DNA from: Terriglobia bacterium | Lineage (GTDB): Bacteria; Acidobacteriota; Terriglobia; 20CM-2-55-15 | Direction: 5' to 3' | NCBI GenBank assembly: GCA_963664115.2 | Contig: CAXWPJ010000009.1 | Coordinates: 1 to 64,000 of the forward strand | Length of the DNA: 64,000 bases | Part shown: positions 2,755-56,727 of the stretch, piece by piece | Layout: every line of letters starts with the position of its first letter | Position numbering within the stretch: the first letter of the stretch is position 1 | Made by a program: the position numbers and the translations under genes | The notes under the pieces: generated by a model | Seen by the model: only the letters and a program-made list of their open reading frames with translations | The model's database searches: none | Told to the model about the DNA's origin: nothing

Positions 2755-2932
2755 ACCGCAAAGGCGCAAAGACGCAAAGGAAGATGGGATGGTCTGTGTA
2801 GATTTCGTCTGATCGCAACTCTATGGGTTCTCAACGACGTTCTTGCTAACCCGAATAACTCCAGTCGAGCGGGATGAAGGCAGGCTATCCCGTCCTGCTT
2901 TTTCTTCCTTTGCATCTTTGCGCCTTTGCGGT
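2755..2932. repeat. Inverted-repeat element copy 1 (CGCAAAG family)
   Basis: 30-bp arms ACCGCAAAGGCGCAAAGACGCAAAGGAAGA at 2755-2784 and its reverse complement at 2903-2932, one mismatch. Confidence 0.9.
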
Positions 2933-3111
2933 TAATCCCCTCTTAATTCTTCCCTTAAATGTCTCGAAAGCCCGGAAAAAGTGGGTCGTTGACCCGGAGG
3001 TTATGGGTCAGACGCCCATTCAGTTTCAATAGTTTAGTGGAGGACCATGACATGCTCAGTCGTCGATGGGTCGGTGACGATGATTACTCTGTTAACTTCG
3101 AGTGGGATAAA

Positions 3112-3657
3112 ATGGCACATATGGATACCAAGGGGCCGGCGACGATCGACGATCTCTATAACGTTCCCGAAGACGGGCGTAAATACGAGCTGGTCGACGG
3201 AGAGATTCTGGTGAGCCCGGGTGGGTTCCGCCACGGCCAAGTCTCCGTCCAGATCGGCTACCTGATCAAACGATTCCTGGAAGGTTCACCGATCGGCGTT
3301 GTCTGCGGCGCGGACCTCGGCATTATCTTCCCCAACGGCAACTTGAGATCTCCGGACGTAACTTTCGTTCGTAACGAAAAGGTCCCAGCCGGGGAGGCGG
3401 CTGAGCGATTTCTTGAGGCTGTGCCCGACCTCGTGGTCGAAGTACTTTCTCCGGGCGACCACATGCGGCATGTCGCAGACAAGATCGGTGAGTTCCTGGA
3501 ATCCGGTGTGTGTCTGGTCTGGTTGGTCGACCCTCAGCCCGAAACCGTCACGGTGTACCGCTCGTTGACCGATACCCGCCAACTCCGGGGCGACGACCTC
3601 ATCGACGGAAACTCTGTCCTTCCAGGCTTCAAAGCGAAAGTCTCCGACTTCTTTTAG
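3112..3657 (+). CDS. Uma2 family (PD-(D/E)XK-like) endonuclease
   Basis: YELVDGEI, H in GFRHG, RSPDVTFV, PDLVVEVLSP, WLVDP, LPGF motifs; start 3112 or 3121 more likely than 2959. Confidence 0.9.
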   Translation: MAHMDTKGPATIDDLYNVPEDGRKYELVDGEILVSPGGFRHGQVSVQIGYLIKRFLEGSPIGVVCGADLGIIFPNGNLRSPDVTFVRNEKVPAGEAAERFLEAVPDLVVEVLSPGDHMRHVADKIGEFLESGVCLVWLVDPQPETVTVYRSLTDTRQLRGDDLIDGNSVLPGFKAKVSDFF

Positions 3658-3698
3658 CTTCAGCTGAACTGCAGATTACTCAGACCGAAACAAAATCT

Positions 3699-3877
3699 TT
3701 CACCGCAAAGGCGCAAAGGAAGATGGGTTGGTCTGTGTGAATTGCGTCGGACTGAACCTCTATGGGTTCTCAACAGCATTCTTGCTAACCCAGACAGCTC
3801 AAGTCGCGCAGAACGTAGGCAGTCTTTCCGTCTTTCTTTCATTTTCTTCCTTTGCGTCTTTGCGCCTTCGCGGTGAA
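3699..3877. repeat. Inverted-repeat element copy 2 (CGCAAAG family)
   Basis: TTCACCGCAAAGGCGCAAAGGAAGA at 3699 and TCTTCCTTTGCGTCTTTGCGCCTTCGCGGTGAA ending 3877; spacer homologous to copy 1. Confidence 0.9.
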
Positions 3878-4207
3878 TCCCCTCTCAGTTCTTCCTAAAG
3901 AAGTCTCGAAAGCTGCGCCTTTGCGGGTCGCGGTTTTAGCGGTCTTTCACTTCCCCTCTGTTTGATTTCAGTGCGTTAACAACGGACCTCTCCGTGCACT
4001 TCTAGTCAGCGTTCCGGTGGATGGCGGGCTTGGGGGCTCAATTAACCGAAGGGCCGGTGCCTCCGACGTGATTCGCCGGAACTCATTCTCCAAATTCCTC
4101 TCGGCGGTTAGAAGGCGAGGCTGTGTATTTACAAATGGAAAGGGCCGCAGTTTCGCGGGCCGCCGGGAGGAAACACATCCAACCACTATTACCTCAAAGG
4201 AGGTTTC

Positions 4208-4513
4208 ATGTTTCGAAAAGCATTTGCAGCGACGCTCCTCTTCACGTTCCTGTTCGCCATGGCCACGATCGCGCCCCAGAGCAGTGAAGCTCAGTCTGCG
4301 ACCACCATGGTCATCGATATCAATTCGGCTCCCCTGGCTGCGCTCCAAGGCATCGTTCAGGACGAGGGTCTCGCCCAGCGGATCATCGAAAATCGGCCGT
4401 ATGCCAACAAACGGCAGTTGCTTTCACGTCAACTCGTGTCGGCAGAGCAATACGACGAGATCAAGGACAGGATCATTGCTCGACGGATCGAGGATTCGGA
4501 AGACTCCCGGTAG
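4208..4513 (+). CDS. Secreted helix-hairpin-helix (ComEA-like) protein
   Basis: GGAGG RBS, signal peptide, IDINSA..LAQRIIENRPY motif. Confidence 0.75.
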   Translation: MFRKAFAATLLFTFLFAMATIAPQSSEAQSATTMVIDINSAPLAALQGIVQDEGLAQRIIENRPYANKRQLLSRQLVSAEQYDEIKDRIIARRIEDSEDSR

Positions 4514-4520
4514 CGCGGCA

Positions 4521-4808
4521 ATGTACGCGCGCATGGTGATCGGCGAAGCAATCCATGAAGATCAGGTTTCAGAGTTCGTTCGGATCTACGAGTCAGAAGT
4601 GCTTCCCAAGCTCCACGACGAACCGGGGTTCGAATCGGCGAACTTCATGGTCGAAGATGGAGGCCGGATGGCGATTTCGCTCACGCTCTGGCAATCCCAG
4701 CAGGACTGCCTGAAATACCACTCCAGTATGGCTTACCGCCAGTTGGTGGAAAAAACCCAGCATCTGTTGAAAGGCAGTTTCATCGTGCGGTTATTCCGTA
4801 CCGTTTAG
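4521..4808 (+). CDS. Antibiotic biosynthesis monooxygenase (ABM)-like protein
   Basis: MYARMV..EPGFES..SLTLWQS..YHSS..Y pattern; real start is inside ORF 4017-4808. Confidence 0.7.
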   Translation: MYARMVIGEAIHEDQVSEFVRIYESEVLPKLHDEPGFESANFMVEDGGRMAISLTLWQSQQDCLKYHSSMAYRQLVEKTQHLLKGSFIVRLFRTV

Positions 4809-4842
4809 GCCCGAGACAGAAAGCGGGGGAGGCAAGAGACCT

Positions 4843-4946
4843 AACCGCAGAGACGCAAAGGCGCAAAGGAAGAGAGAAGAGTCAGTTTGTCTTTTCTGAA
4901 AATCATTTTTCTTTGTCTTCCTTTGCGCCTTTGCGTCTTTGCGGTT
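4843..4946. repeat. Inverted-repeat element copy 3, between convergent genes
   Basis: 31-bp arms AACCGCAGAGACGCAAAGGCGCAAAGGAAGA at 4843-4873 and reverse complement at 4916-4946, one mismatch. Confidence 0.9.
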
Positions 4947-4982
4947 CAAACTTCTTGCCTCTTCATATCCATGCCTCTGCGT

Positions 4983-5999
4983 TCATTCTTTTTCTTTTCT
5001 GCGGTAGGGCCTGAAATCGACGTTGCATCGGTGGCGCCGCAGGAAGTCCATGAATCGCTTGTAATCGGTGTCGGGCATATTAAAGAGTCGGACGACCTTT
5101 CTGTAGCTACCGTGGGTTTGAACCAGGCCACGCCGGATGACGGCCTCGACCTGTCGCTTGGTGATCAGACGGTCGGTGTAGGGCCGGGCGACCGATTCCC
5201 AGAAATCGTCGACGACGACTGCCTCGACAGGTTCCCGAACCAGGGCATCCGTGGGCAGCGTGATCGCATCCGGCGCAATAATTTCTGTCTCCGACATGTA
5301 GTAGCTGCTTTCAATGACGTTCTGCAGTTCGCGAATGTTTCCCGGGTAATGATAGGCAAGCAACTTTTCCATGGCATTGGGCGACAGAGTTCTCTCTTCT
5401 CCACTGTCGGCATTCAGCGATGCGACGATATGACGCACCAGAAGCGGGATGTCGGACCGGCGCTTTCGAAGCGGGGGAACTTCAATCGCAAATACGTTGA
5501 GACGGTAGAGGAGGTCTTCGCGGAAATCACCCGAACGCGCCATCGACCGAAGGTCACAGTTGGTGGCGGCGATTATGCGGGCGTCGATCGGGCGGTCGAC
5601 AACGTCACCGAGTCGACGCACCTGCTTCTCCTGAAGCACGCGGAGAAACTTCACCTGGAATCGTTTGGAAGTATTCGCAATTTCATCCAGGAAGAGCGTT
5701 CCCTGGTTCGCTTGCTCAAAAAGTCCGGGTTTGTCGCCGATGGCCGTCGTAAAGGCGCCACGCCGGTAGCCGAACAGTTCGCTTTCGACCAGTTCTTCCG
5801 GAAGGGCACCGCAATCAATGGGCACGAACCGGCGCTGGCGGCGGCTGCACTGATCGTGAATAGCACGTGCGACCAATTCCTTTCCGGTACCGGTCTCTCC
5901 CTGGATCAGAACCGAACTCGAAGTTCTGGCAGCGGCTTGAATTTTTGAGTGCAGGAGTTCGACCGCATCACTTTGTCCAATCATTTTTGTTCGCATCAT
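4983..5999 (-). CDS. Sigma54-dependent transcriptional activator (AAA+ and HTH, no sensor domain)
   Basis: GETGTGKE, ESELFG, GAFTTA, LFLDEI, FREDLLYRL, YPGNIRELQN; start MMRTKMIGQS. Confidence 0.9.
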   Translation of the reverse strand: MMRTKMIGQSDAVELLHSKIQAAARTSSSVLIQGETGTGKELVARAIHDQCSRRQRRFVPIDCGALPEELVESELFGYRRGAFTTAIGDKPGLFEQANQGTLFLDEIANTSKRFQVKFLRVLQEKQVRRLGDVVDRPIDARIIAATNCDLRSMARSGDFREDLLYRLNVFAIEVPPLRKRRSDIPLLVRHIVASLNADSGEERTLSPNAMEKLLAYHYPGNIRELQNVIESSYYMSETEIIAPDAITLPTDALVREPVEAVVVDDFWESVARPYTDRLITKRQVEAVIRRGLVQTHGSYRKVVRLFNMPDTDYKRFMDFLRRHRCNVDFRPYRRKEKE

Positions 6000-6020
6000 G
6001 ACACTACAGCCGGAGCAGAC

Positions 6021-6547
6021 ATGGAAAAGGTCACTCAAAAATTGGAGCAAGGCAGCCCGGAGGTTCTCGAAGAGCTCGGTCGCGCAATCCGAAAGATCCA
6101 TGGCACGCGCGATCCGGATCTCGAGCAGGAAGTCTTTCTCAGAACGCTCAAGGCGTTTCGGAAGGAAAGAAGGTCGAGCATCCGCGGGCACTCATATGGA
6201 AGATCGCCAAAGACACGGTCGCTGACCATTGGAGGCTCAGGGCGCGGGACCGTTGGGACCCCCTGGACGAACTCCAGCACCCGGCCGCCCAGGACACGGA
6301 TGCCGAACGCGACCTCGATCGAAAACGTCGTGTCGAACAATTGCGAAACGGGATCCTGCGACTTGGATGCGACATCCGGGGATCGGTCTACCTGTTTTAC
6401 ATGGAAGGCTATTCGGTTTCCTCGATCGCGCGGATTTATGGAAAGACGCCCTCCGCGGTCAAGATGGCCCTCTACCGGGGACGGCGGCAATTGGTGCGAA
6501 TGTTTCGATCGGACGCGACTAACAAGTCGGGCTTCGAGCGACTTTGA
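6021..6547 (+). CDS. ECF sigma factor, apparent frameshift near 6165-6172
   Basis: Region 2 DLEQEVFLR continues in another frame as ALIWKIAKDTVADHWR, then region 4 LFYMEGYSVSSIARIYGKTPSAVKMALYRGRRQL. Confidence 0.8.
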
Positions 6548-6562
6548 GGCCCGCCAGAGCCG

Positions 6563-6636
6563 TAACTCATTGATCTCAAGACGGACTAAGAATGGAACCC
6601 CACGTGAAACAGTCTGAGTCGGGCACACGGTCCGCG
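6563..6636 (+). promoter_or_regulatory. Candidate IHF site plus sigma54 -24/-12 promoter for the peptide genes
   Basis: GATCAATGAGTTA on the minus strand (6563-6575) resembles WATCAAnnnnTTR; GG-CACACGGTCC-GC at 6622-6635. Caveat: predicted +1 near 6647 falls just after the GGAGG. Confidence 0.4.
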
Positions 6637-6657
6637 ATCTGGGAGGATCAACACACA

Positions 6658-6840
6658 ATGAATCGACAAATTGTAACGCTCAGCAGCACAGAGCTCATGG
6701 GAACAGTCGGCGGTGACTGGAATTGGCACGATTTCTTTGCGGGGGCCACCTGGGGTTTAGGCGCAGGCTGCGGGATCAGCGGTCACCCCGTTCTGTGTAT
6801 GGGCGCCCTGTTTACTGGCGGCATAACGATGTTCTTCTAG
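6658..6840 (+). CDS. Double-glycine leader peptide precursor 1 (bacteriocin-like)
   Basis: GGAGG upstream; leader MNRQIVTLSSTELMGTVGG matches LSxxELxxxxGG; Gly-rich hydrophobic 41-aa core; C39 exporter downstream. Confidence 0.85.
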   Translation: MNRQIVTLSSTELMGTVGGDWNWHDFFAGATWGLGAGCGISGHPVLCMGALFTGGITMFF

Positions 6841-6852
6841 GAGGAATGAACA

Positions 6853-7038
6853 ATGACATCACACGTCCAAGACATTTCCGCATTGGAACTCCAGCAAATT
6901 GGTGGAGGTGACTGGTTTGAAACCACCTGGGGAATCCTGCTCGGCACGGGATTCGCTGCCGGCTTCCTCGGTTCGGGTGGACTGCTGACGATTGCAGGAA
7001 TCGCCGGATTTGGCCTGATCTTCGGTCCCCCGTTCTAA
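6853..7038 (+). CDS. Double-glycine leader peptide precursor 2 (bacteriocin-like)
   Basis: AGGAGG RBS; leader MTSHVQDISALELQQIGG(G); core with several GxxxG motifs. Confidence 0.85.
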   Translation: MTSHVQDISALELQQIGGGDWFETTWGILLGTGFAAGFLGSGGLLTIAGIAGFGLIFGPPF

Positions 7039-7131
7039 GCATTCAACCTCTTCAACCCTTAGGTGCGCTCGAATGGGCGCACCTCGCATTCCACCTGGAC
7101 CTGCGTGCCATGCGCGCACAAAACTAAATCA

Positions 7132-7872
7132 ATGGACGTCTTTCAACTCGAACAAGCCGTCAAAAAGCGCAGCGACGATTTTGTCCTGGGACCGCTCGAC
7201 CTTCATCTCTCAGCGGGGGAAATCCTCGGTGTCATGGGCCCTAACGGTGCGGGCAAAACCACCCTCCTGCGATTGTTGTGGGGCTTTCTGCGTCCGGACG
7301 CCGGGCGCGTGTCTGTGTTCGGCAGAACACCCCATCTGGAACAGGTCTGGATTCGTCTACGGGCGGGCTACCTTCCCGAGTCGTTGAAGTTCTATGACTG
7401 GATGACGGTGGATCGATTCCTTGCGTTCATGGCCGGTTTCTATCCGTCCTGGGACTGGGGCCATGCCCTTGAACTCCTGGAGCAGTTCGGAATAACTCCC
7501 GCCCGGACTATCGGGACCTTATCCAAAGGAAATCGGGTGAAGCTGGGCCTTCTGGCAGCGGTGGCCCATCGGCCAAAGCTACTGATCCTGGACGAACCGA
7601 CCTCGGGTCTGGACCCCTTGATACGAATCGACATCCTCCATTTCCTCCGATGCTCCGCACAAGAAGACGGCACGGGAATCGTCCTGTCCTCTCATGTGTC
7701 CGACGATCTGGACCGGATTGCCGATTCCGTTCTGATGCTGAACGACGGCAAGGTATTGGAGTATGCGCCGACTAAGGTTCTGCTCGACAAAACCAACGAA
7801 ACTCAACTGGAGGCTGTGTTTTTGAATGCGGTCGGTAGGATTCCCACATCTCGCGTTCCACATCGCGCGTAA
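7132..7872 (+). CDS. ABC transporter ATP-binding protein (ABC-2 type, possible self-immunity)
   Basis: GPNGAGKTT, LSKG, LDEPTSGLDP, SSH. Confidence 0.9.
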   Translation: MDVFQLEQAVKKRSDDFVLGPLDLHLSAGEILGVMGPNGAGKTTLLRLLWGFLRPDAGRVSVFGRTPHLEQVWIRLRAGYLPESLKFYDWMTVDRFLAFMAGFYPSWDWGHALELLEQFGITPARTIGTLSKGNRVKLGLLAAVAHRPKLLILDEPTSGLDPLIRIDILHFLRCSAQEDGTGIVLSSHVSDDLDRIADSVLMLNDGKVLEYAPTKVLLDKTNETQLEAVFLNAVGRIPTSRVPHRA

Positions 7873-8461
7873 AGACTGGGCCGAAGCGCGTCATGTCGTG
7901 ATCGCGCTGACCCTGGGTCTTATGGTTCCCGCCCTGCGCGTCCGCTTCGCTCCGGGCCGTTCGGACGACTTCGCAAAAGGTCTGCTGGCCGGCTTGCTCG
8001 CAGGTGCCGGTTTCGGCTACGCCCAGTTCTGTTTCCTGAACGAACGCCAGCGAGGCACACTGGAGTTTCTGCTCAGCCTTCCCATTGAGCCCCGACAGCT
8101 TGTCCTCGCCAAATTCGTCTCCCTGTACTCAATGGTCCTTTTCACCGTAAATGTCCCTGGCCTGCTCGTCCCAGACCTTCGGCTCGTCTACATCACCAAC
8201 GCCGCAGCCCTTTCACTAGCAACCGTCTTCATGGCCACAACGGTCATCTCAGACAAGCCCTGGGCCTCGCAAATACCCGTCTGGTTCCTTCTCGTCTTCA
8301 TCCTCCCCATCCAACGCCTCCTCGAACGCTACTACCCCAACGGACTGCAGCTCTTCGAAACCCTCACCGCCAACCCCATTCTGTTAGCGACATTCGCCTT
8401 GCTCGTCAGCCCGCTCGTTGTCGCTGTATCCGTTTCGATTTTTCACCGCAAAGGCGCAAAG
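7826..8461 (+). CDS. ABC-2 permease; no stop codon, reads through into the GxxExxY domain (ORF ends 8839)
   Basis: Multi-TM; ERQRGTLEFLLSLPI..LVLAKF motif. Confidence 0.8.
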
Positions 8462-8950
8462 GTGAATGAGAACCCTTTGTCACGGAAGGTCATTGGGGCC
8501 GTAATTGAAGTGCACCGCATCTTAGGCCCGGGCCTACTAGAGTCGATTTATCAAGACTGCCTCGACATTGAGTTCCGGCTTCGAAGAATCAGGTTCGAAA
8601 GGGAAAAGAGAATCCCTCTCATCTACAAAGACCAAGATCTGAGAGAGCGCCTTCGTATCGACTTTCTCGTCGCAGATGAAGTCGTAATCGAAACCAAATC
8701 CGTTCACTCGTTACTGCCCGTACATGACGCGCAAGTGCTCACGTACCTAAAGTTGACCGGCTGCAAATTAGGTCTGCTGATCAACTTCAACGTCCCAGTA
8801 GCAAGAGACGGAATCAAACGCATCGTAAACCGCCTCTAGCCCCCCCCCCTTTTTCGTTTGCATCGACGCCCCCTTTGTTTCCCATTCGGATTCCCCCTCC
8901 CCCATATAGAATCGTCTTTCTTCTTTGCGTCTTCGCGCCTTTGCGGTGAA
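8442..8950. mobile_element. GxxExxY cassette bounded by CGCAAAG-family inverted repeats (copy 4)
   Basis: TTCACCGCAAAGGCGCAAAG at 8442-8461 and CTTTGCGTCTTCGCGCCTTTGCGGTGAA at 8923-8950 enclose the nuclease ORF; mobility is inferred. Confidence 0.6.
8462..8839 (+). CDS. GxxExxY protein (PD-(D/E)XK-like nuclease fold)
   Basis: VHRILGPGLLESIY, RIDFLV..VVIETK, HDAQVLTYLK, GLLINFN. Confidence 0.92.
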   Translation: MNENPLSRKVIGAVIEVHRILGPGLLESIYQDCLDIEFRLRRIRFEREKRIPLIYKDQDLRERLRIDFLVADEVVIETKSVHSLLPVHDAQVLTYLKLTGCKLGLLINFNVPVARDGIKRIVNRL

Positions 8951-9100
8951 CCTCTTCATGTCTTCGCCTTGAAGCTCTAAATTCCCCGCTTTATCTCCCC
9001 GTACCCACACAAACAAATCGCCGATCAAGCGTCTTTCCCATTCTTGGTCCTATGGTGTGAGCCGTTTAGCTATGGCCCCCCAACTGCCCTTTCTCCCACT

Positions 9101-11175
9101 GTGGCATACACCATCATTCACCAGCATGACGCCAATGACTGTGGCCCCGCGTGTCTGGCGATGGTGGCGGCGCATTATGGAAAACGTCAGTCCATTGCTC
9201 GACTCAGAGAAAAATCTGGAACCGACCGCCAGGGCACAAACCTCGCAGGGCTAATACAGGCGGCCCAGGAAGTGGGCTTCGAGGCCCGTGGCGTCCGCGC
9301 CACCCCGGAAGGCCTCACCGAGGTCACGCTCCCCGCCATCGCCCCCTGGTCCGAAGACGGGCGGAACCACTTCGTCGTCCTGTTCAAACAAAGCTCGCGG
9401 CGCATTACGATCGGCGACCCCGCCCTTGGTGTACGCAAGCTCACACCCGAAGAATTCGCTGCGCACTGGACCGGGATACTCGTACTTCTGAAACCCACCC
9501 TCAACTTGCGGGATCTATCCACGCCCTCGCTTTCGAAACTGTGGTCCCTGGTTGGCCACCATCGAAAGCTCTTCCTGGATGCACTGCTCGCGGCAGTCCT
9601 CATGACGATCCTCGGCCTCGCCTCAGCCTTCTTCATCCAAGTCCTCGTCGACTTCGTGTTCCTTGTTGGAGCCGAACCCACCTTAAACTGGCTCGGCCTG
9701 GGATGCTGCTCGTGCTGGGTGCGCGTGTCGCGTTCCACGGCCTCCGAGCCTATCTCCTCGCCCACCTCAGCCACCGGATCGATGCGGACATTGTGTTGGG
9801 ATACCACCATCATGTCCTGGGACTGCCGCTTGATTTCTTCTGGACCCGCCGGACCGGCGAGATCCTCTCCCGCTTGTCTGATGCGATGAAGATCCGCCTG
9901 GCGATCAGCGGGACTGGCCTTGCCGTCATCGTCGACGGCATCACCTTGATTCTGACCGCCACCATCATGTGCATCCTTCATTGGAAACTGGCCATCGCTT
10001 CTCTCGCTCTTTTGCCAGTGCTCGTCGTTGTCCTCTATGGTTTGACGGGGCCTATGAAACGCGCCCAGCGGACGGCCATGGAGCGGGCCGCACACTTCGA
10101 GTCGCACACCGTAGAAGCCGTCAGCGCCATCGATACGGTCAAGGCGTTTCGGGCCGAAGACCGCATGCGGCTTCGCGGCGAAGTCCGCTTTGGTGAGTTG
10201 ATCGACGCCACGTTCCGGGCCGAGATCTTTGCCTTGCACGCCTCCACCTTAACAACGTTTCTGACCGGACTGGCAAGCCTGACGCTGCTGTGGGTCGGCG
10301 GGCGCGAAGTCCTCGCCGGTGGTCTGAGCGTCGGTCAGCTCATGGCACTCTTCACGATGTTGGGAACCGTTATTGGCCCCGTCGAACGACTGGCCAATGC
10401 GAATCAATCCATACAGGACGCATTGGTCGCTGGAGAACGCCTTGGGGAAATTTTTGAAATAGAGCCCGAAGAAAATCGGGAACCTCAGGAAAGATCGATG
10501 AAGGTCGCACGTTCCATTGAAGGTGCCATCGAATTTCAGAACGTGACATTTGGCTATGGAAACCGGCCGCCCGTCATCAAAGATCAGAGCTTCCGCATTG
10601 ACCCCGGCGAATGTTGCCGCATCGTAGGCGCAAGCGGTAGCGGCAAGACAACGCTTGCCCGGGCGCTGGGACGGTTTCTGAAACCCCACAGTGGGCGTGT
10701 CTTAATTGATGCCATCGATGTCAACGATTACACCCTGGAGAGTCTGCGCCGCCAGGTGGGCTATGTCTCCCAGGACGGGCACATACTGAGTGTCTCCATC
10801 GCCGACAACATTCGCCTGGGCCGGGCGGACGCTTCCCCTACAGAAGTCCGCCTGGCCGCGACCCAGGCCGGAGCCGCCGCATTTATCGAACACCTACCCC
10901 TGGGCTACAACTCGCTGGTCGGCGAGCGCGGCACTACCCTATCGGGTGGGGAACGGCAGCGCTTGCTCCTGGCACGGGCCATTCTTGTCAACCCGCCCAT
11001 ACTGGTTCTTGATGAACCGACCAATCACCTCGACCGGGCATCGACACAGGCAGTCCGGGAACTGATCGATCAGCGCAAACGCGACCACCGCACAACGATC
11101 ATAATCTCCCACGACGAACTGCCCGCCCACAGAACGATTGCCATCGACAGCAACACTTATGCGCTGGCGAACTGA
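9101..11175 (+). CDS. Peptidase-containing ABC exporter (C39, TMD, NBD), apparent frameshift near 9700
   Basis: QHDANDCGPACL, HFVV, IGDPA triad; GASGSGKTT, LSGGERQ, LDEPT, ISH; frames switch at GGCCTGGGATG. Confidence 0.9.
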
Positions 11176-12328
11176 GCTTAACCTCGGCGGAAAGCCCCGC
11201 CTGGTGGGCGCGACGGTCTACGTCCTTGCCACTCTCCTGGCCATTGCACTCACATGGAGTTATTTCACTGAAGTGGACGTCGTCGTCCGTGCACCCGGCC
11301 TGGTCCGGCCCGATGGCGAAGTCGTTCGAATCACCTCCGAGGTCGCCGGAACCATCGAGGCCGTCCACGTTGAGGAGGGCGACGCAGTTCACACAGGTGA
11401 CATCGTCGTCCGGTTGGACAACCAGCAGATCCGTTTGGAACGCGAAACGATAGAACACCAAATCGCTCTCGCCGGGGAACAACTCCGGGACCTCGATCGC
11501 AGGATCGCGACCACGGCCAGAATCCACGTTCTGGAACTGGAAAAGCTCGACACGGAAATCCGCTCAGCCCGTCAAGTCCTGGAACAAGGACACAGGGAAC
11601 ACGCGGCTCAAATGGAATCAGCCTCGCTTCGGCTGGAACAGACACGCCAGGAACACTTGAGGAACCAGCAATTGTTCGCGGAAGGACTCATCTCCCGGCA
11701 AACTTCGGATCGCTTCCGGAACGATTTCAATCTGGCCGAGGCCCAGCACCTGGAAATCCTCTATCGGAAACCCACTGACGCATCCTTGCAATCGTTGCTG
11801 GAAACGAAAAATTTGATCGATGCGGAACTTGAATCACTCCAACAGGACCTTCGGATGGAATCCGTGCCGATCGAGGCCCAACGGACCGAACTCCGGTCAC
11901 GACAACAGCAAGTCGATCAGGAAGCGGAGCGCCGCTTCATTCGCAGCCCGTCTACGGGCCAGATTACCCTGCTGCCCACAGTACATCCGGGAGAACATAT
12001 TGCCGCCGGCACTCTGATCGCAACGCTGGCCCCGACACCGGTCCGTCCCATCGTCGAGGCCTGGGTCCCAAACGCCAAGGCCACGGACCTTCGGCCCGGC
12101 CATCCCGCCCGTCTCCGTCTTGACGATTCGGAAACCATAGACGGCATCGTCTTCGCCGTCAGCCCGAACGTGCGGTTTACCGAGTCCGCGAACGGCGCCT
12201 TCCAGGTCCTGATCGCCCCCGACACGCTGGGCCTCCGCCTCGGCCTGGCCGTCGACGTCCGCATCATTACACGCCAGGAGCGAGTCCTGACCTTGCTGTT
12301 CAACAGAATCGAAAGGGCGTTTGACTAA
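11138..12328 (+). CDS. HlyD family secretion membrane fusion protein
   Basis: N-terminal TM, GTIEAVHVEEGDAVHTGD, long coiled coil, IRSPSTG. Confidence 0.9.
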   Translation: MPSTATLMRWRTELNLGGKPRLVGATVYVLATLLAIALTWSYFTEVDVVVRAPGLVRPDGEVVRITSEVAGTIEAVHVEEGDAVHTGDIVVRLDNQQIRLERETIEHQIALAGEQLRDLDRRIATTARIHVLELEKLDTEIRSARQVLEQGHREHAAQMESASLRLEQTRQEHLRNQQLFAEGLISRQTSDRFRNDFNLAEAQHLEILYRKPTDASLQSLLETKNLIDAELESLQQDLRMESVPIEAQRTELRSRQQQVDQEAERRFIRSPSTGQITLLPTVHPGEHIAAGTLIATLAPTPVRPIVEAWVPNAKATDLRPGHPARLRLDDSETIDGIVFAVSPNVRFTESANGAFQVLIAPDTLGLRLGLAVDVRIITRQERVLTLLFNRIERAFD

Positions 12329-12432
12329 CTAGTAATTCATACTCGGAAAGCTAACACTGGCCTCCAACTGGCCCACATGACAATGCCCGACCCTTGACTC
12401 GACTTCTGGCCTACGCACAACGGGTGTACTAG

Positions 12433-14281
12433 ACCCAAAACAAGCGCATAACCAGTCCGCCGAGGCCCAGTTCGCGCCGATAGAATTCGAGGCATAGAAT
12501 CCCGTTCCCGGATGGCCTGTTCCAGGTATCGAGTTTCTGTTGAATCTGTTTCAGTTCAGCCTCGCTGGTGTTGGACGGTTGACAGAAACCGGGACCTCGA
12601 TCGCCCGGGCTCAGAGTCATGATCGGGTCAACATCGCAGAGGCTGACGCAACACATCCACCCCGCGGAACAAGACCGGCAACCACCGGTTCCAGGCCAGG
12701 ATCCGGAACAGAATGCGCCGCCCGGTGCGCACGAGTTGGCACGGCACAAGCATGAAAGCGTTCAAGAAGGTTTTGAACTCCATGCGCAGCACGGTTTGCT
12801 TCTCAGCCTGATATTTTTGGCCCCAACGTCCGGTTTCGGGAAGCAGCAATGCAAACCACGCTTTCAGTGTCCAGGCCAGTGACGCGATCACCATGTAGGC
12901 CCAGTTGCTGGTCTGATCTCCGACCGGCATCCGCAACGCCTGAACGCCGTTCTTCAACTGCTCAATGAGATTCTCCTGATTGCACCGTTGATTGGCACGC
13001 ATCACAATCTGGTCGGCCGGATCCGAACGGTTGGTAATGTAGAAGAAGTACCGGATGTCGTCAAACAACACCTGCTCTCCTTTGGCCACCGACAGATTCT
13101 TCCGCACCACGACGACACGGTAGTCCCGATCGCAGGCTCCGGGTCGATACCGAAACTCGGCCACATCCTCACCCTGCAAGCGGATATTGTCGAAACCGCG
13201 CTGCCGAACGATCTCTTCCTTCACGTTGTCGGGACGTTGGCGCGGTTCGGTCGCCACGTCGTATTTCGCGGGCCGTTCCAGGCGCTTCCACTGGCGCGGC
13301 TCCAGTTCATCGGCCCGGGCCTTCAGGTTCGCCATCGCGTCAATCCCGAATATGAAACCCACCTGCTGGTCGTCCCATCCGTCCAGATGCCGGGTCTGGC
13401 TGAAGTCCGTGTCCCCGCGCAGCAGGATCTGGCGAAACCCCGCATGCCGGCACAATGCGATGGCTTGGTCGAACCGGACCGCGGCTCCTTCATGCGACGG
13501 CCGGTTGCCGCTACGATTGACCAGATACAGCGGTTCGGCGGTGTTGGCCAGCGAGATCATCAGCGGGTGATATCCCCACGTCCCGTCGTAGGCCACGTCC
13601 ATCCCTTGCTTGCATTCCCCCGTGGTTTCGGCCAGTGTCCCGTCCGCGTCCAACACCGCTTCTTCGAAAAACGCCGCCGGTTGCTGTCGCCAGACTCCGA
13701 GCCGGACTTGATTGGTTGCCTCCATCAGACACTCCACGTCGTCGGCCTCGAATCTCCGGCAGAAGTCTCCCGCCGTCGTCGGATCCGGAATCCGTTGCGC
13801 TCCCAGCGCATCCAGATACACCGCATCGTTGCGCCGCAGTTCGATGTCTTCCAGGCACGTTCCTCCGCTCAAGGCGTTGTAGGCGATGTTCAGCACGTGA
13901 TCCGACTCGTGATACGGCAGGTGCCGCTTCAACACATGCACGCCCTTGTCGATGGCTTCGATCAGCCCGGTCCGCCGCGCCACCAGTTGCATCGTCCCGA
14001 TACCACCAACCGATGTGCCCCGCGTCCGCTCTCCCATCTCGTACTGAATGTTGCTCGCCGAAAACATCGGCTCTACCTGATCCGTCCAATGCCGGTCCCC
14101 AAGCCGACGTTCGATTCGCCGCTTGCGGTTCCTCATGTTCTTGCGCGTATAATCGTTCATCTGAAATGCCTCCTTTTCCGAAGAATCTGTTCAAGGTTTT
14201 TTTCGCACGGAGACGGGGCATTTCGGGTACTTCCGCTCTTATTGCACTATCATTTCCTCGTCAATCACGCTTGTTCAGGGT
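12433..14281 (-). mobile_element. IS1380 family insertion sequence
   Basis: Imperfect terminal IRs ACCCAAAACAAGCG and CGCTTGTTCAGGGT, with CTAG on both flanks (12429-12432, 14282-14285). Confidence 0.85.
12628..14160 (-). CDS. IS1380 family transposase
   Basis: PDPTTAGDFCRRF, LDADGT, GYHPL, LRGDTDF, RCNQENLIEQLK motifs. Confidence 0.9.
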   Translation of the reverse strand: MNDYTRKNMRNRKRRIERRLGDRHWTDQVEPMFSASNIQYEMGERTRGTSVGGIGTMQLVARRTGLIEAIDKGVHVLKRHLPYHESDHVLNIAYNALSGGTCLEDIELRRNDAVYLDALGAQRIPDPTTAGDFCRRFEADDVECLMEATNQVRLGVWRQQPAAFFEEAVLDADGTLAETTGECKQGMDVAYDGTWGYHPLMISLANTAEPLYLVNRSGNRPSHEGAAVRFDQAIALCRHAGFRQILLRGDTDFSQTRHLDGWDDQQVGFIFGIDAMANLKARADELEPRQWKRLERPAKYDVATEPRQRPDNVKEEIVRQRGFDNIRLQGEDVAEFRYRPGACDRDYRVVVVRKNLSVAKGEQVLFDDIRYFFYITNRSDPADQIVMRANQRCNQENLIEQLKNGVQALRMPVGDQTSNWAYMVIASLAWTLKAWFALLLPETGRWGQKYQAEKQTVLRMEFKTFLNAFMLVPCQLVRTGRRILFRILAWNRWLPVLFRGVDVLRQPLRC

Positions 14282-14518
14282 CTAGACTCGCTCTTCCCTT
14301 GGAGCGCCGCCCAGGGCGTAGCGCAAACCGGCAGCGTATGACTCCAACTCGCTGCGGCGGATGTTCAACCTTATCTTCTCTTCAAGACTCCGCTCGGGGT
14401 CGCGATATTGCTTCATGAGTTCTACGAGTTGGTTGCTGGTTGTGGCCAACTCTTCCCGTAGGTCCTCCGCCCCTCGCAAGGCATCGCCTGTGACCGTCTG
14501 TGTTGCTGTCGCTGACAT
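14282..14518 (-). CDS. Small coiled-coil hypothetical protein
   Basis: GGAG RBS; its TAG stop coincides with the IS flank CTAG. Confidence 0.6.
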   Translation of the reverse strand: MSATATQTVTGDALRGAEDLREELATTSNQLVELMKQYRDPERSLEEKIRLNIRRSELESYAAGLRYALGGAPREERV

Positions 14519-31771: not shown

Positions 31772-33156
31772 GAGTTATTGTCAAAAGTGGTGTTTAGGAG
31801 ATTGATTCAAGCGGCGGCCTGATCGACTTGTGTCGCTTCGACACCATCGTTGAATTTCACTCCGATGATTACCTTGCTCAGATCATCGAATCCTCGTAAT
31901 CGTCGCCAATTGTTCTCAGCGCACTGGCCCAGTTTGAACATCATGTGCAGCATGCCATCCCGTGTCAGGCAACCTCTGGATCGCTTCGTTCGGTGTCGAA
32001 TGGTGGCAAAGGTCGACTCAATGGGATTCGTCGTTCTGATGCTCTGCCAGTGCTTGGCCGGAAAGTCGTAAAAGGCCAGCAGTTCCTCTCTGTCTTTCTG
32101 CAGGCAGAGTGTGGCTTTCGGATACTTCGGTTCATAGGTTTCAATGAACAAGTCGAATGCCTTCTCGGCGTCTGCCTTCGTCTCGGCCTGCCAGATCGAG
32201 TGCAGGGCCTGTTTCGCCTTCGCCTGGACCGACTTGGGCAGGCAGTTGAGGACGTTCATGACTTTGTGCATCCAGCAACGTTGTTGACGTGTCTCGGGAT
32301 AGATTTCCTCCAGTGCGGCCCAGAACCCCATCGCACCGTCACCGATGGCCAACTTCGGAACATTCATCCCACGGGACTTCAGCTTCAACAAGACCTCGCG
32401 CCAACTCTGTGTCGATTCCCGTACACCGTCTTCGATCGCCAGGAAACGCTTCTCTCCGCGTTCATTCACGCCGATCACGACCAATGCACACAACTTGGTT
32501 TGTTCCGCCCGAAGTCCGCTGTAGATGCCGTCGGCCCAGACATAGACCCAGCGATCTGCATCCAAACGCTCCTCGCATCCGAGGCGGTACTGTTCGCCCC
32601 AAACCTGTTTCAACCGCGATACCGTGCTCGCCGACAGACCCTGCGCCTGGGGACCGACAAGAACTTTTAGGGCCTCACCCATCTCGCCGCTGGAAACGCC
32701 TTTCAAATACAACCACGGCACCGCTGCTTCCAGCGACTTCGTCTTCCGAATGTACGGTGGTACCAGGGCCGATCGGAACGTCACAGCTTCGCCCGTCTTG
32801 GCACGGACCTTCGGGATTTGGACTGTTACCGGACCCAATCCCGTCTGCAGTTCGCGTTCCGGCAGATAACCGTTGCGTACCACCCCGGCGTTTCCTGTCT
32901 CAGTTCGCCGGCCACCGTGCTGGGATAGCAGCTCTGCCAATTCGGCTTCCACTGCGCGTTGGATCAGTTGCTGTGCCCCAACTCGTAGTAGTTCTGTTAC
33001 TGGATCCTCAATCGTTTCTCGACCTTCCGGTCCATTCACGTTACTCTTGCTCACAGTGGCGTATCTCCTATGGTTGCTTTGAAGTTTTGTCACAACAAAT
33101 CAACCAGATACGCCGCTCTTATTCAATCCCTCAAACACCAGATTCGGTTATAACTC
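31772..33156 (-). mobile_element. IS256 family insertion sequence
   Basis: Imperfect IRs GAGTTAT..TGGTGTTT..GATTGA at both ends; flanks do not match, so no target duplication. Confidence 0.85.
31807..33054 (-). CDS. IS256 family transposase
   Basis: RNGYLPER, YLKGVS, WADG, IGDGAMG, QRCWMHK, TTNPIES. Confidence 0.93.
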   Translation of the reverse strand: MSKSNVNGPEGRETIEDPVTELLRVGAQQLIQRAVEAELAELLSQHGGRRTETGNAGVVRNGYLPERELQTGLGPVTVQIPKVRAKTGEAVTFRSALVPPYIRKTKSLEAAVPWLYLKGVSSGEMGEALKVLVGPQAQGLSASTVSRLKQVWGEQYRLGCEERLDADRWVYVWADGIYSGLRAEQTKLCALVVIGVNERGEKRFLAIEDGVRESTQSWREVLLKLKSRGMNVPKLAIGDGAMGFWAALEEIYPETRQQRCWMHKVMNVLNCLPKSVQAKAKQALHSIWQAETKADAEKAFDLFIETYEPKYPKATLCLQKDREELLAFYDFPAKHWQSIRTTNPIESTFATIRHRTKRSRGCLTRDGMLHMMFKLGQCAENNWRRLRGFDDLSKVIIGVKFNDGVEATQVDQAAA

Positions 33157-39328: not shown

Positions 39329-39439
39329 ATCCGCTCTTATTCTTTAACCACAGAGGCGGGGAGGCAGAGAGATTCGAAATGTTGATTTCCCAGTCCCCAG
39401 TGTCTGCCGCTACTGTGTATTGAAAAATTCATTTTCCTT

Positions 39440-52813: not shown

Positions 52814-53170
52814 TCACAGCTTGACCACTTCTGTAACTCTGACTCCCGAACTGTTCTCGACAACGATGACTTCACCCCGAGCTACAGTTTGCCCATTGGC
52901 ACAGATGTCAAAGGGCTCACCAGCCGCCTTTGCAACACGGAAAACATCCCCGGGCTTGAGACCCAGAATTTCCTTCAACAGCATCTGCAACCGCCCGATC
53001 TCAAATGTCAGGTGAAGCGGAACGTCCGCGAACACCTTGAACCGTTTCAAAGTGGCCATTGCGGCCACTTCAGCGTCAATCGGCACGACAGGCTCTGTCT
53101 CTGCGTCAGGGGCTGAAATGACCGCCGGAGGAGCAGGAGTTGGGAGTGGAACGACTTCTTCGCCGGTCAT
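52814..53170 (-). CDS. fliN: Second FliN/SpoA-domain protein
   Basis: DVPL..EIG, ANG..ARGEVIVV..GVRVTEV. Confidence 0.85.
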   Translation of the reverse strand: MTGEEVVPLPTPAPPAVISAPDAETEPVVPIDAEVAAMATLKRFKVFADVPLHLTFEIGRLQMLLKEILGLKPGDVFRVAKAAGEPFDICANGQTVARGEVIVVENSSGVRVTEVVKL

Positions 53171-53712: not shown

Positions 53713-53752
53713 AGGTTGCCTCCGTGAATCATGTTTACCGCAGACACGGAAA

Positions 53753-53769
53753 TGCACGCCATGTGCCAA
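53753..53769 (-). promoter_or_regulatory. Sigma54 promoter upstream of fliL
   Basis: TTGGCACATGGCGTGCA (GG-N10-GC). Confidence 0.75.
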
Positions 53770-53922
53770 GCATTAGGGATGTCTCAATAGATCCAGCAAA
53801 GTGCTGGTAAAAGGAAGGTTACGTTCTTTCAGAGTCCAAGCCGCAGAACCGGAATGACGGCAAGCTGACAGAGAAACCGTCAACAAACCTCCGAACGCGC
53901 CAAGGGCTTGACCCGGAATGGG

Positions 53923-54141
53923 CTAATCGAAATACCGCTGGGCCATCTGGGAGAGAATCTCCCGGGCGTCCAAGGCCTTCTGCTCGATCAGTTCGTAACG
54001 GCTCTTGGCCTTGCCTTCGGCCGCATCCAACTGCAACAGTTCCGACGATGTCAGGATGACGCCAATCTTGTTGTTCAGGTCGTGTATCGCTTTCTTTAAG
54101 TACTCCAGTTCCTCAGTTGAGAGAGCGTTGTCTTCAGTCAT
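53923..54141 (-). CDS. Stand-alone HisKA/DHp-like small protein
   Basis: H-box-like AIHDLNNKIGVI plus a second helix; GGAG RBS. Confidence 0.6.
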   Translation of the reverse strand: MTEDNALSTEELEYLKKAIHDLNNKIGVILTSSELLQLDAAEGKAKSRYELIEQKALDAREILSQMAQRYFD

Positions 54142-54169
54142 GGGTTTCGACCCTAACAACTCCAATTAA

Positions 54170-54419
54170 AAGTAACAAGTGACAAGCAGGGTTTCTTAGG
54201 ATCATCTGCCGGGACATCTGCCCGACTATCTGCCGGACCATCTGCCGCTCCAGCTAGTGTCGCGGCTTTGTGGCTGCCGGGCTATCTGCCGCTTCAACTA
54301 GTGTCGCGGCTTTGTGGCTGCCGGGCTATCTGCCGCTTCAACTAGTGTCGCGGCTCTGGCCGACCCCTACCGGTCCATCTGCCGCTTCAGCGAGTGAAGC
54401 GGCTTGTCACTTGTCACTT
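54170..54419. repeat. Composite repeat: 18-bp inverted ends with internal 12-bp and 44-bp periodic repeats
   Basis: AAGTAACAAGTGACAAGC and GCTTGTCACTTGTCACTT; ATCTGCC at 54204, 54216, 54228, 54240, 54284, 54328 and 54377. Confidence 0.85.
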
Positions 54420-54910
54420 CTTCTTACCGCTTCAGGTTCATCGTTTCCTGCAGGATCTCGTCGGTTGCGGTAATCATTCGCGCGTTAGCCTGGTAGCCCC
54501 TCTGGTAGGTGATGATCTTCGTGAACTCGCCCGCCAGATCGACGTTCGACAGTTCGAGCGCCCCGCTGACTAAACGCCCTCGCCCTCCCTGACCGGGTGT
54601 GCCGAGCAACAACGAGCCCGAAGCGACGGACTCGGCAAAAAGACCGCTGCCCGAGGAAGCGGCTTGTCACTTGTCACTTCTTCTTACCGCTTCAGGTTCA
54701 TCGTTTCCTGCAGGATCTCGTCGGTTGCGGTAATCATTCGCGCGTTAGCCTGGTAGCCCCTCTGGTAGGTGATGATCTTCGTGAACTCGCCCGCCCACGT
54801 TCGACAGTTCGAGCGCCCCGCTGACTAAACGCCCTCGCCCTCTGACCGGGTGTGCCGAGCAACAACGAGCCCGAAGCGACGGACTCGGCAAAAAGACCGC
54901 TGCCCGAGGA
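54396..54910. repeat. Tandem ~260-bp duplication of the flgE 3' end
   Basis: 54396-54655 repeats from 54656; copies differ by two small indels. Confidence 0.85.
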
Positions 54911-56016
54911 AACCAAACCATTTTCGTTCTTGAACACCGCGAGCGCCATCTTGGCAATGTCGATCGTCAGGCCGTTGCTGAATACTCCGGCGATCGTGCC
55001 GTCTGATCCAATGACCAGCGAGTTCATATCTCCCGGAGGCACGCCATCCTGATTGCTCAGTGTTACATTGCTCGGACTTGCCAGGCCGGTCGCGTTCAGA
55101 TCACCGCTTGGGGCAACAAGTTTCCAGGTCAGACCGTTTGGTGCCAGCGTCGCGCTGTTGGCCATTGTAGGAAGCGTGACGGCTGTTGGTGGAATCACCA
55201 GGTTTGCTGCCGCGACGACCGTCCCGCCCAGGTAGGCGGACTCGAGTTTTCCGTTGGTGTCGAACACCAGGGTGCCGGCCGCTGGAGTCGCCGTGGCGAT
55301 AGCGCCGGTTATCAGGCTGTAATTGTCCGTACTGGTCGCAGCAATCCCGGTAAAATCTTTATGTGGAACGGTGACATCAAACTTCCAGTCTGTCTGGGTT
55401 GCCGTGATGGAATTCTTGACCATGGAGATCGTTGCCAGGTGGGCCTTGCCAAGAGAATCATAGAGCTGAGTCGTCATCGCGAACTTAGTCCCGACGAGCG
55501 CGGCAGCGTCCAGATTAAAGGCCAATTCAAAATTGGCGGTCGGATTGGCGCTTCCCGTGGCGACTGGAATCCGTATGTTGGCCAGACTCGACGACGTGTC
55601 AATGACCCCTGTTGATGGATCGCGCACCCAACCTTGAACCGCGTGTCCCGTAGCGGCAACCAGTTGCCCGTCGGCATCGACTGAAAAGTTGCCCGCACGC
55701 GTATAGAAGTTGCCCTTCCCGTTGTTGACAACAAAGAATCCGTTTCCCTGGATTGCCACGTCGGTCGGGTTGTTGGTGGTTTCCAGTCCACCTTGGATAA
55801 AATTCGTACTGATGCGGCCGATCTGACACCGAGTCCGACCTGCCCACTCGTACCCCCACTGCTGCTGACGGTCTGACCTAGGACGTCGGTAAAATTGATA
55901 CTCGTGCTCTTGAAACCAACGGTGTTCATGTTGGCCAGATTGTTACCCACGACATTGAGTCCCTGGGTGTTGGTCGATAGACCCGACAGTGCGGTGGAAA
56001 AAGTATTAATACCCAT
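54684..56016 (-). CDS. flgE: Flagellar hook protein FlgE (apparent frameshifts near 55820, 54840 and 54795)
   Basis: GNNLANMNTVGFK, YTRAGNF, YDSLG, GALELSNV, YQRGYQANAR. Confidence 0.9.
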
Positions 56017-56051
56017 TATCTCTCCTTAGATCTCTTATTGTCCTGCATCGC

Positions 56052-56339
56052 TCATGCACTAAAAACTGTGGGCTCACTCACGTCCGAGGCAGCCTCAGAC
56101 TGGCTCACCAGCGTCTCGTTGACCTGTTCCATTACTTCTCGAATATTGATCAGTTCTTCCAAACTGCTGAACTGTGCGAGCTGGGCCACGAACGCTGTCC
56201 CGTCCATGGGGTCCAAGGGGTTTTGTCCCTTGATCTGGGCGATCAGTAATTGTAGAAACTGCGATTTCTGTTCCTCGGCTTGGGATTTCAATGCGGACGG
56301 CGCCGCGGTTGTTCCGGTTCCTGTGATTGTCTCAATCAT
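56052..56339 (-). CDS. flgD: Hook capping protein FlgD (short form)
   Basis: FLQLLIAQIKGQNPLDPMD..FVAQLAQFSSLE. Confidence 0.92.
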   Translation of the reverse strand: MIETITGTGTTAAPSALKSQAEEQKSQFLQLLIAQIKGQNPLDPMDGTAFVAQLAQFSSLEELINIREVMEQVNETLVSQSEAASDVSEPTVFSA

Positions 56340-56552
56340 CTCTGTACCTCCCCACGCTGGCTATAATGCACGCACCGCACCGAAGTAATTCTAGGCCGTA
56401 TACTGTTGAAACAAAGGGTATGGAAAGGGAGACGGCACCAAGGCAACAATGAACATTCTCCCCACCCGGCATTTTTTGCTCATGTTCGCGGCCCCAGCTG
56501 CCGATACGCTCCAGCACTGATCCGGAACTTGCCGCAAGAAGAATAGGAAGCA

Positions 56553-56727
56553 AACCGCAGAGGCGCAAAGACGCAAAGGAAGAAGCATTGGCTGCCCTTG
56601 ACTGGCGATGTTGAGTCCAACCATAGGCGTCGGGCCTAGCAACCACGTCATTGGAAACTCATGATGGTTGGGCAAGCAGACCGCTACACAGCCTAAAGTC
56701 TTTGCGCCTTCGCGCCTTTGCGGTGAA
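56553..56727. repeat. Inverted-repeat element copy 5 (CGCAAAG family)
   Basis: ACCGCAGAGGCGCAAAGACGCAAAGGAAGA and CTTTGCGCCTTCGCGCCTTTGCGGTGAA. Confidence 0.88.

Follow-up and report, generated by a model that had tools for sequence, protein, structure and literature searches.

A GxxExxY gene and its mirrored repeat arms: a candidate nuclease cassette exchanged at a fixed address, with hairpin replacement at the same slots in sister genomes

Two described bacterial systems resemble the locus studied here. In the accounts cited, REPIN/RAYT systems comprise inverted doublets outside genes, in which the arms are conserved and the spacer varies (10.1101/2021.07.10.451892; PMC5581495; PMC6006769; PMC3733652), and in the Ssn/NTS system the gene for SsnA, a site-specific GIY-YIG nuclease acting on single-stranded DNA (ssDNA), lies between copies of a dispersed repeat (PMC11893778). 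The GxxExxY proteins (PF13366) have been placed in the PD-(D/E)XK superfamily with function unknown, in the part of that account available to us (PMC3424549). We analysed positions 1-64,000 of contig CAXWPJ010000009.1 from a Terriglobia bacterium (genome code G000; this whole 64,000-nucleotide (nt) stretch is henceforth the window), in which an earlier note had described five paired inverted repeats built from tandem units of about 8 nt, one of them around a GxxExxY gene, and had proposed a REPIN/RAYT-like selfish system. That gene and repeat go together is real and widespread, the evidence for swapping comes from the sequences of one genus, and the interpretation of the earlier note is partly supported overall. 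The best reading, to which we assign a probability of roughly 50%, is a REP/RAYT- or Ssn-like system in which a nick beside the arms would be followed by host recombination.

In the window, the GxxExxY gene (8462..8839, + strand, 125 amino acids, single copy, a predicted PD-(D/E)XK nuclease) stands between a left arm of two units (8442..8461, + strand) and a right arm of three units (8923..8950, - strand), the ACC-to-GGT ends of the element lying at 8445-8947. As described before, it is the one gene that this element encloses; it is also the genome's only copy, and its product scores 143.7 bits with TIGR04256 (cut-off 35) and 139.4 bits with PF13366 (cut-off 22). The residues of the GxxExxY motif are G24-E27-Y30, and across 84 aligned relatives E27, Y30, E77, K79, Y95, N108 and F109 are invariant and D67 is kept in 83; from the PD-(D/E)XK motif we infer that D67, E77 and K79 are the catalytic residues. 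A structure model (pLDDT 94.5; a single-sequence prediction reached only 35.5) likewise predicts the restriction-endonuclease-like PD-(D/E)XK fold that the earlier note had named for the family. By VIA-align the model matched BpuSI (Z 8.2, root-mean-square deviation (rmsd) 2.5, 91 residues aligned), Cas4 SSO0001 (Z 8.0, rmsd 4.4, 102 aligned) and Hjc (Z 6.5), the nearest folds overall being Cas4, lambda exonuclease, type II restriction and Hjc nucleases. Matches in the ESM Atlas were PF13366 clusters only, no solved structure of a relative was found by sequence, and GIY-YIG (cd10448) was absent among the Pfam and NCBIfam matches of the protein. Were the arms to pair in a transcript, the protein might instead process the resulting RNA stems, like the intervening sequences removed from operon transcripts: the element hairpins are very stable (z -9.5) and stand directly 3' of stop codons, and the lower ranks of the fold lists include tRNA-splicing endonucleases (Z 5.2-5.3). 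We give such RNA processing very little credence, as the top fold matches are DNA nucleases and it would leave unexplained a replacement at the DNA level that follows the resident arm type (below).

The arms belong to a family dispersed over the 4.9-Mb genome. Counted with orientation and pairing, the pattern ACCGC[AG][AG]AG[AG]CGC[AG][AG]AG has 92 strict matches, against 0 for the pattern read backwards, and up to two mismatches give 115 arms (control: 8 matches, each with 2 mismatches) that form 46 inward and 0 outward pairs. Four of the 46 are duplicates, on contig C10, of pairs in window 1-14285; among the 42 distinct pairs, one encloses the GxxExxY gene, one an 86-amino-acid open reading frame (ORF), and the remainder are gene-less according to a simple gene finder. 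The C10 copy (C10:366445-380728) is 99.9% identical to the window, ends at a multi-copy insertion sequence (IS), and is either a real duplication or an assembly overlap. The arms are tandem direct 8-nt units, non-palindromic and purine-rich on one strand, with a column conservation of 0.97 in the left arm versus 0.65-0.72 in the interior. Thirty-four of the 42 elements lie at most 50 nt from a gene's 3' end, and their junctions (17 converging, 23 co-oriented, 2 divergent, on a background of 307, 1073 and 509) reveal an avoidance of divergent ones (2/42 vs 27%). Two further arm types occur in G000, AACACGAAG with 44 matches and a third with 10. In genomes G071 and G098 the doublets are reversed, with the ACC ends facing inward around a spacer of about 22 nt.

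A partnership of gene and arms is evident far beyond this genome. We fetched 97 loci, of which 93 were full length, 91 distinct and 88 provided with flanks, and searched for inverted matches between upstream and downstream DNA (score at least 30). Inverted arms were found at 65/88 loci, versus 1/86 shifted windows, 13/88 in direct orientation and 7% of cross pairs, and a locus's own partner was its best match in 44 of the 88. From a second set of 80 named loci, less three with short flanks, 47/77 had inverted arms versus 0/74 controls (Chloroflexota 4/4, Planctomycetota 6/6, Verrucomicrobiota 21/36, Alphaproteobacteria 13/20), so that arms flank 112/165 GxxExxY loci against 1/160 controls when both sets are combined. 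The arm sequences are variations on one word (ACCGCAAAG, ACCACAGAG, AACACGAAG, ATCCGCAGAT and others), and they grow more alike as protein identity rises (Mantel rho 0.37, p 0.0005, 65 loci, kin not being independent); some GxxExxY genes sit between two complete hairpins rather than within one. Across 200 genomes of the phylum, at least five arms of one pattern occurred in 47/78 gene-positive versus 11/122 gene-negative genomes, and by family arms were present in 18/25 gene-positive versus 1/43 gene-negative families. This association persisted on permutation within families (p 0.009), and omitting the gene-negative row G062, an unpublished genome, leaves the table unchanged in effect. The earlier note's expectation that repeat abundance tracks the gene across genomes, and that the gene is flanked by the arms, is thus borne out, the arm type moreover following the resident cassette. 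We consider it almost certain that gene and arms are partners.

Some members of the family depart from this layout or add to it. The PF13366 family was present in 79/201 genomes of the phylum sample, with up to 9 GxxExxY matches per genome and 21 in one, G170, which has no arm of the searched pattern. Two GxxExxY genes, one of them from Rhabdochlamydiaceae (loci L150 and L151), are bounded by nearly perfect inverted repeats of 120-150 bp that include the arm. In one alphaproteobacterial genome, three cassettes are about 98% identical (L175, L179 and L185, about 1790-2560); all three are embedded in a longer unit that has inverted ends and CTAG borders of its own, and are therefore carried by another mobile element; they were discarded as a guide to nuclease-made ends because 140-150 nt beyond the arms are also common to them.

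The GxxExxY gene might be merely a passenger riding in hairpin slots while a RAYT/TIRYT or a host recombinase spreads the arms. Other genes do come and go at slots (large indels touched arms in 5/7 and 8/24 cases, vs 8-9% of random windows), 11 gene-negative genomes contain arms, and G000 has two Y1_Tnp genes. A rival transposase with the same ends, which the earlier note had named as a refutation, was not found: 0/20 Y1_Tnp loci had arms within 1.5 kb, and G244 has no Y1_Tnp match but 101 arms matching its cassette. The same gene family is also arm-flanked at numerous addresses that have nothing in common, spread over at least six named phyla or classes, and the scarcity of arms in gene-negative families (1/43) likewise speaks against a passenger, to which we give little credence. 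The layout is REPIN/RAYT-like around a PF13366 gene, with a non-DDE, non-HUH enzyme, as the earlier note had suggested.

In this family, the preferred reading of a cassette at a fixed address starts from the gene upstream. The left arm of the element is not intergenic: it encodes FHRKGAK, the end of an ABC-2 permease-like gene (7826..8441, + strand) whose 3' end is the cassette's address. With two units rather than three, the G000 left arm places the permease in frame with the nuclease (ORF 7826-8839), and contigs of four runs from four studies contained no indel in this fusion. In relatives with a three-unit left arm, a TGA ends the permease and overlaps the GTG start of the nuclease, and at most loci of the family the permease draws its final codons from the left arm, together with a stop that coincides with or adjoins the start of the nuclease; the number of units could thereby switch between coupled and fused translation. 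Just after the GxxExxY stop, a poly-C tract within the cassette (8840-8849) is 2-3 nt shorter in four runs and 1 nt shorter in the C10 duplicate.

The permease is present in 16/35 genomes of the family, with a cassette (intact or broken) behind it in 10 and none in 6. Between G007 and G017 the permease ends are 95% identical (synonymous divergence, dS, 0.25), but the nucleases are only 57% identical with saturated synonymous sites, and the arms differ; between G244 and G245 the permease ends are 90% identical (dS 0.16), with nucleases 58% identical, synonymous sites again saturated, and arms again different. Identity drops 10-25 nt before the left arm, and in G007/G017 it resumes at the start of the next gene. 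In G021 and G013 an old arm remnant comes first, then the permease's last codons once more in a diverged copy, and then the new arm, a layout implying that the incoming piece brought a relative's gene end with it. This pattern of divergence shows what appears to be an exchange among relatives, in which the cassette is swapped at one permease gene's 3' end. The native locus of G004 has a broken GxxExxY gene and decayed arms; contig C2 of the same genome is nearly identical to G007 and encodes the same nuclease protein, so the intact G004 copy may be bin contamination or a recent transfer. G244 contains a second, interrupted GxxExxY gene between two complete CCACGGAT-type hairpins (L294, about 300-2050).

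The sister genomes differ in their dispersed hairpins as well. G244, with a CACGGAG cassette, has 101 CACRGAG and 9 CGCRAAG matches, and G245, with a CGCAAAG cassette, 93 and 190; G007 (ACC cassette) has 97 ACC and 100 GAC matches, and G017 (GAC cassette) 54 and 160. These counts show that each sister genome is enriched for the arm type of what appears to be its resident cassette. Within 175 kb of G245 there are 14 CGCAAAG sites, 12 with a paired G244 ortholog, and at those 12 G244 has another arm type (10 sites) or another palindrome family (2 sites). Empty sites, which the earlier note had proposed to look for, were not among them (0/12). As only about 19 of the 88 gaps in the G244 block hold arms, the overlap of slots is far above chance (p 9e-6). 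Interiors of the replaced slots are unrelated, with fuzzy breakpoints 13-52 nt outside the arms. The 22 new-type G245 spacers that we fetched (of 190 pattern matches) are mutually unlike, save two with old-arm remnants, and two searched genome-wide were both unique. Of the 28 arm sites in G017, 21 have a G007 ortholog (10 kept, 11 swapped), and at the eight gene-less swapped sites with arms in both genomes the type was GAC eight times in G017 and ACC seven times in G007. Many identical junctions are occupied in all four genomes, and older arm types persist as layers. Gene ends also differ more in register at swapped slots (63/660 nt) than at kept slots (9/360), after removal of rows with at least 10 mismatches in the last 30 nt as frameshifted or false ORF ends. 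The alignments thus show that new-type hairpins occupy junctions at which the sister has what seems an older hairpin, and the evidence points to replacement at fixed slots, away from jumping into empty sites. Junctions of G244/G245 are also used by a palindrome family, GGGGACAGGGC...GCCCTGTCCCC, and in G007 by a 7-nt tandem type.

Slot replacement could also be a by-product of gene exchange among relatives. The nuclease would then act as an Ssn-like filter that cuts incoming ssDNA by arm type and so biases which alleles recombine in, and the hairpins would be selected tags, for example mRNA-stabilising stems. SsnA restricts transforming DNA that bears its repeat, and the repeat-gene-repeat layout is alike, as far as the available part of the report goes (PMC11893778). 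The placement of 34/42 elements near gene 3' ends and the avoidance of divergent junctions fit such tags, and unique spacers with diverged gene ends suit import from relatives. However, destroying DNA with the cognate tag should deplete the resident type, which is in fact enriched; the breakpoints close to the arms (13-52 nt) fall below usual transformation tracts, which are longer; and the interior that many elements share (below) lacks covariation. We therefore regard the filter as unlikely.

A transposase that excises and inserts arm-bounded units, preferring old hairpins and perhaps using a covalent tyrosine intermediate, is rather improbable in our view. At least 23 G000 elements, including elements 1, 2 and 5 of the window, have a common interior as well as common arms (a subfamily of about 170 bp), which suits a transposase, as do the invariance of Y30 and Y95 in 84 proteins and the position of the resident type outside older arms in 4/5 stacks in G000 (stacks are mixed in relatives, and the signal is weak). 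In G146, a primase-like gene present four times has single arms, in frame, at each of its two domain linkers, a further point for insertion by a transposase; four same-strand arm pairs of that genome, entertained as a cargo element, proved to be these single arms inside the primase gene. Against transposition, no target-site duplication stood clearly above permutation at any of 24 offset/length combinations over 42 pairs, the best spacer-to-spacer identity in G000 is 81%, the 22 new G245 spacers are not mutual copies and the ends are fuzzy. Moreover, genomes of the family have a single gene at a fixed place, the sole case that we found of near-identical cassettes in several copies is the one in the larger unit with its own ends, and PD-(D/E)XK enzymes are hydrolytic. 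A profile of the shared interior matched only arm-flanked places at E <0.5 and did not match the cassette interior. The earlier idea of an autonomous cassette with non-autonomous derivatives is therefore not supported (no target-site duplication, spacers at most 81% identical, gene-less interiors unlike the cassette, 0/12 new-type sites empty in the sister genome), and the picture of gene-less elements with variable spacers stands only in part: four of the five window elements are indeed gene-less, but elements 1, 2 and 5 share the subfamily interior. Likewise, the matching unit order within copies 1 and 3 is visible, but maintained pairing is not supported, arm-to-arm likeness within elements being no better than in shuffled pairs (p 0.07, 0.39 and 0.34 for 17, 25 and 33 nt; 42 pairs).

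Three accounts of the interior itself were rejected. An integration host factor (IHF) site was within two mismatches in 9/23 spacers, versus 10.9 in shuffles. A structured RNA was dismissed, since the consensus fold consists of the arm pairs only, with no compensatory change, and the window has no Rfam match. Local hypermutation between arms was set aside because, at one site, the orthologous spacer of G000 and G002 is 77% identical, versus 72% at wecB third positions.

We return to nicking with host recombination, under which the GxxExxY gene, together with the mirrored tandem 8-nt units on either side of it, would form one cassette at a fixed address. The protein would recognise its own arm, probably as a single strand or cruciform, and as a predicted arm-specific PD-(D/E)XK nuclease it would nick near the hairpin base. 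As PD-(D/E)XK enzymes hydrolyse and do not rejoin, host recombination, rather than the protein, would do the joining and complete the process, and intergenic slots would be overwritten with resident-arm DNA. The donor would mostly be a relative's DNA with the same junction, giving short co-conversion of gene ends; some copying within the genome would also occur, for example in the 170-bp subfamily. Because the cassette swap is accompanied by hairpin replacement at the same junctions in two sister pairs, the enzyme likely drives this in-place turnover. That it causes the turnover we consider probable from these alignments; that nicking plus host recombination is the route would be an even bet.

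A number of results weigh against this reading. The slot comparisons comprise two sister pairs of one genus, 175-200 kb each, made without an outgroup, so that the direction of change is not fixed, and no donor was found; the removal of rows from the gene-end count also qualifies its contrast. At three of the 17 G244 arm sites that could be compared, G245 lacks an arm (one being a coding false match), and G003 is a counter-example in which the resident CACGAAG (17) ranks third and CGCRGAG (74) is commonest. Approximately unbiased (AU) tests did not reject sister clades of the nuclease (p 0.32-0.35), and in the nuclease tree 7/8 proteins of the site group together (84/93), both compatible with fast divergence in place. 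The shared interior of the 23 aligned G000 elements would have needed copying between sites at some time. On the side of the partnership, 53/165 loci have no arms at the threshold, named loci with arms number 0/5 in Bacteroidota and 0/2 in Acidobacteriota, and the arm-gene association is not significant when permuted within genera (p 0.61). By the single pattern used, 11/122 gene-negative genomes have at least five arms and 31/78 gene-positive ones do not, and G023 has 61 arms with no GxxExxY gene found (94% complete, 230 contigs). Finally, Foldseek gave no match at E 0.001 or better, the best being Cas4 SSO0001 (1.5e-3) and lambda-type exonucleases, and a top Z of 8.2 for the predicted model indicates a common arrangement and no function.

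The five inverted-repeat pairs of the window lie where the earlier note had placed them. Element 1 (2755..2932), of the 170-bp subfamily, begins 35 nt 3' of the wecB stop, has arms of three 8-nt units and forms a single long hairpin when folded (z -9.5); in G002 this slot contains a homologous element with a retyped left arm. A Uma2 gene (PF05685; 2959..3657, + strand) separates it from element 2 (3702..3874), which is of the same subfamily and lies 45 nt 3' of the Uma2 stop. Elements 1 and 2 have flanks that form diverged direct repeats, and the wecB slot of G002 has one element and then sequence resembling that 3' of element 2; the Uma2 gene is likely cargo gained at the wecB slot along with one hairpin, judging from these alignments. 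Element 3 (4844..4945) is short, with a purine/pyrimidine spacer, between converging genes, and G007 has a different palindrome family at its slot. After the cassette, the last is element 5 (56554..56724), again of the 170-bp subfamily, in the flagellar cluster; its slot is decayed in G004, reduced to a spacer-like remnant in G001, occupied by a different short hairpin in G003, and has none in G007. The degenerate relative claimed at 39346-39417 did not hold up, the site being a lone weak arm of a related type (39344..39375, + strand, score 12) with no inverted partner. In read contigs of four runs over 1500-11500 and four over 54000-60000 no empty allele was seen, and the short joints observed there came from other copies of the arms.

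Other features of the window concern its assembly and neighbours. Two IS-like units (12429-14285 and 31772-33156), with dozens of near-identical genome copies each, lack the arms as far as the patterns used can tell. An additional base at 6171 and another at 9702 in all four runs indicate that frameshifts in a sigma-54 regulator and an ABC exporter are probably assembly errors. An exact 149-nt duplication at 56825-56973 was not present in three runs of a relative, and the duplications at 54396-54911, equally exact, may be similar in nature. A 39-nt tandem repeat (58336-58690) lies within a 609-amino-acid gene of the flagellar cluster that has no Pfam or NCBIfam match.

We found no description of the gene-arm link in the open literature (subscription journals and supplements lay outside the search). 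New here are the cassette exchange at a fixed address, the enrichment of the resident arm type and the replacement of hairpins at the same slot. It is a tentative proposition, somewhat short of even odds, that these represent a widespread undescribed class of elements, interchangeable nuclease cassettes that have a repeat code each, capture a single chromosomal address and go on to overwrite intergenic hairpin slots in numbers from dozens to hundreds, altering stop codons and moving cargo genes. If true, repeats would turn over here in a way that is neither transposition nor homing nor REP duplication, and the cassettes would amount to a natural collection of small sequence-specific nucleases paired with their substrates, a potential source of 125-residue nucleases of differing specificity. 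It would give the large function-unknown family PF13366 a substrate and a testable job. The spread and turnover of REP-like repeats is a long-standing question, which sister genomes differing in one cassette make directly testable, and matched enzyme-arm pairs are available in G244/G245 and G007/G017.

How does the GxxExxY system compare with known ones? Like REPIN/RAYT systems, as the cited accounts portray them, it has inverted doublets of about 60-180 bp, extragenic and in tens to hundreds per genome, with doublets in both orientations occurring in the arm family. An enzyme gene in single copy, bordered by its own repeat, keeps to the same extragenic space (as seen in family f1), and the gene is nearly absent from plasmids (7/72,556 records, all typed non-mobilizable) and phages (0/50,697). 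Unlike RAYT, the enzyme is PD-(D/E)XK-like (PF13366) rather than an HUH/Y1 tyrosine transposase, and its arms are tandem non-palindromic units of 8-10 nt rather than small palindromes tagged GTAG or CGTC. The gene appears to be exchanged between close relatives, whereas RAYT is described as inherited with the host, and new hairpins of the GxxExxY type replace old ones at the same junction.

As in Ssn/NTS, a small single-domain nuclease gene is flanked on both sides by a hairpin-forming, genome-dispersed repeat, and there are many enzyme-repeat pairs across phyla. The fold is different, and a GxxExxY arm is half of one long hairpin, not the hairpin itself. The parts of PMC11893778 available to us do not report hairpins being replaced slot by slot in connection with cassette exchange. 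In contrast to SsnA, the GxxExxY protein is a predicted nuclease. If our reading is true, GxxExxY would be a third unrelated fold with the repeat-gene-repeat layout, after RAYT (HUH) and Ssn (GIY-YIG).

Homing endonuclease genes are known for co-conversion of their flanks. Like the freestanding ones, as far as the account available describes them (PMC10055350), the GxxExxY gene encodes a predicted nuclease and keeps a fixed address, its exchange takes along short stretches of the neighbouring genes, and empty alleles exist (6/16 genomes with the permease). Unlike homing endonucleases, which have none, it has a dispersed repeat family; occupied alleles replace occupied ones, an outcome not foreseen by a plain homing cycle, and gene-less slots also turn over.

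Miniature inverted-repeat transposable elements (MITEs) and IS elements have terminal inverted repeats and exist in gene-carrying and gene-less forms, and the GxxExxY elements similarly have inverted ends, one gene-carrying form and many gene-less ones. They differ in having no target duplication, near-identical copies or DDE transposase, in gene-less interiors that are unrelated to the cassette by the spacer profile and so are no internal-deletion derivatives, and in that 0/12 new-type sites are empty in the sister genome. Integron attC sites, finally, are hairpins with conserved ends and variable interiors just 3' of stop codons, between which genes are gained and lost. The GxxExxY hairpins likewise have conserved ends and variable interiors and follow stop codons, and genes come and go at them. 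No tyrosine integrase turned up beside them, no test for one having been made, and unlike attC sites the GxxExxY hairpins are dispersed over the genome and have no sharp crossover point.

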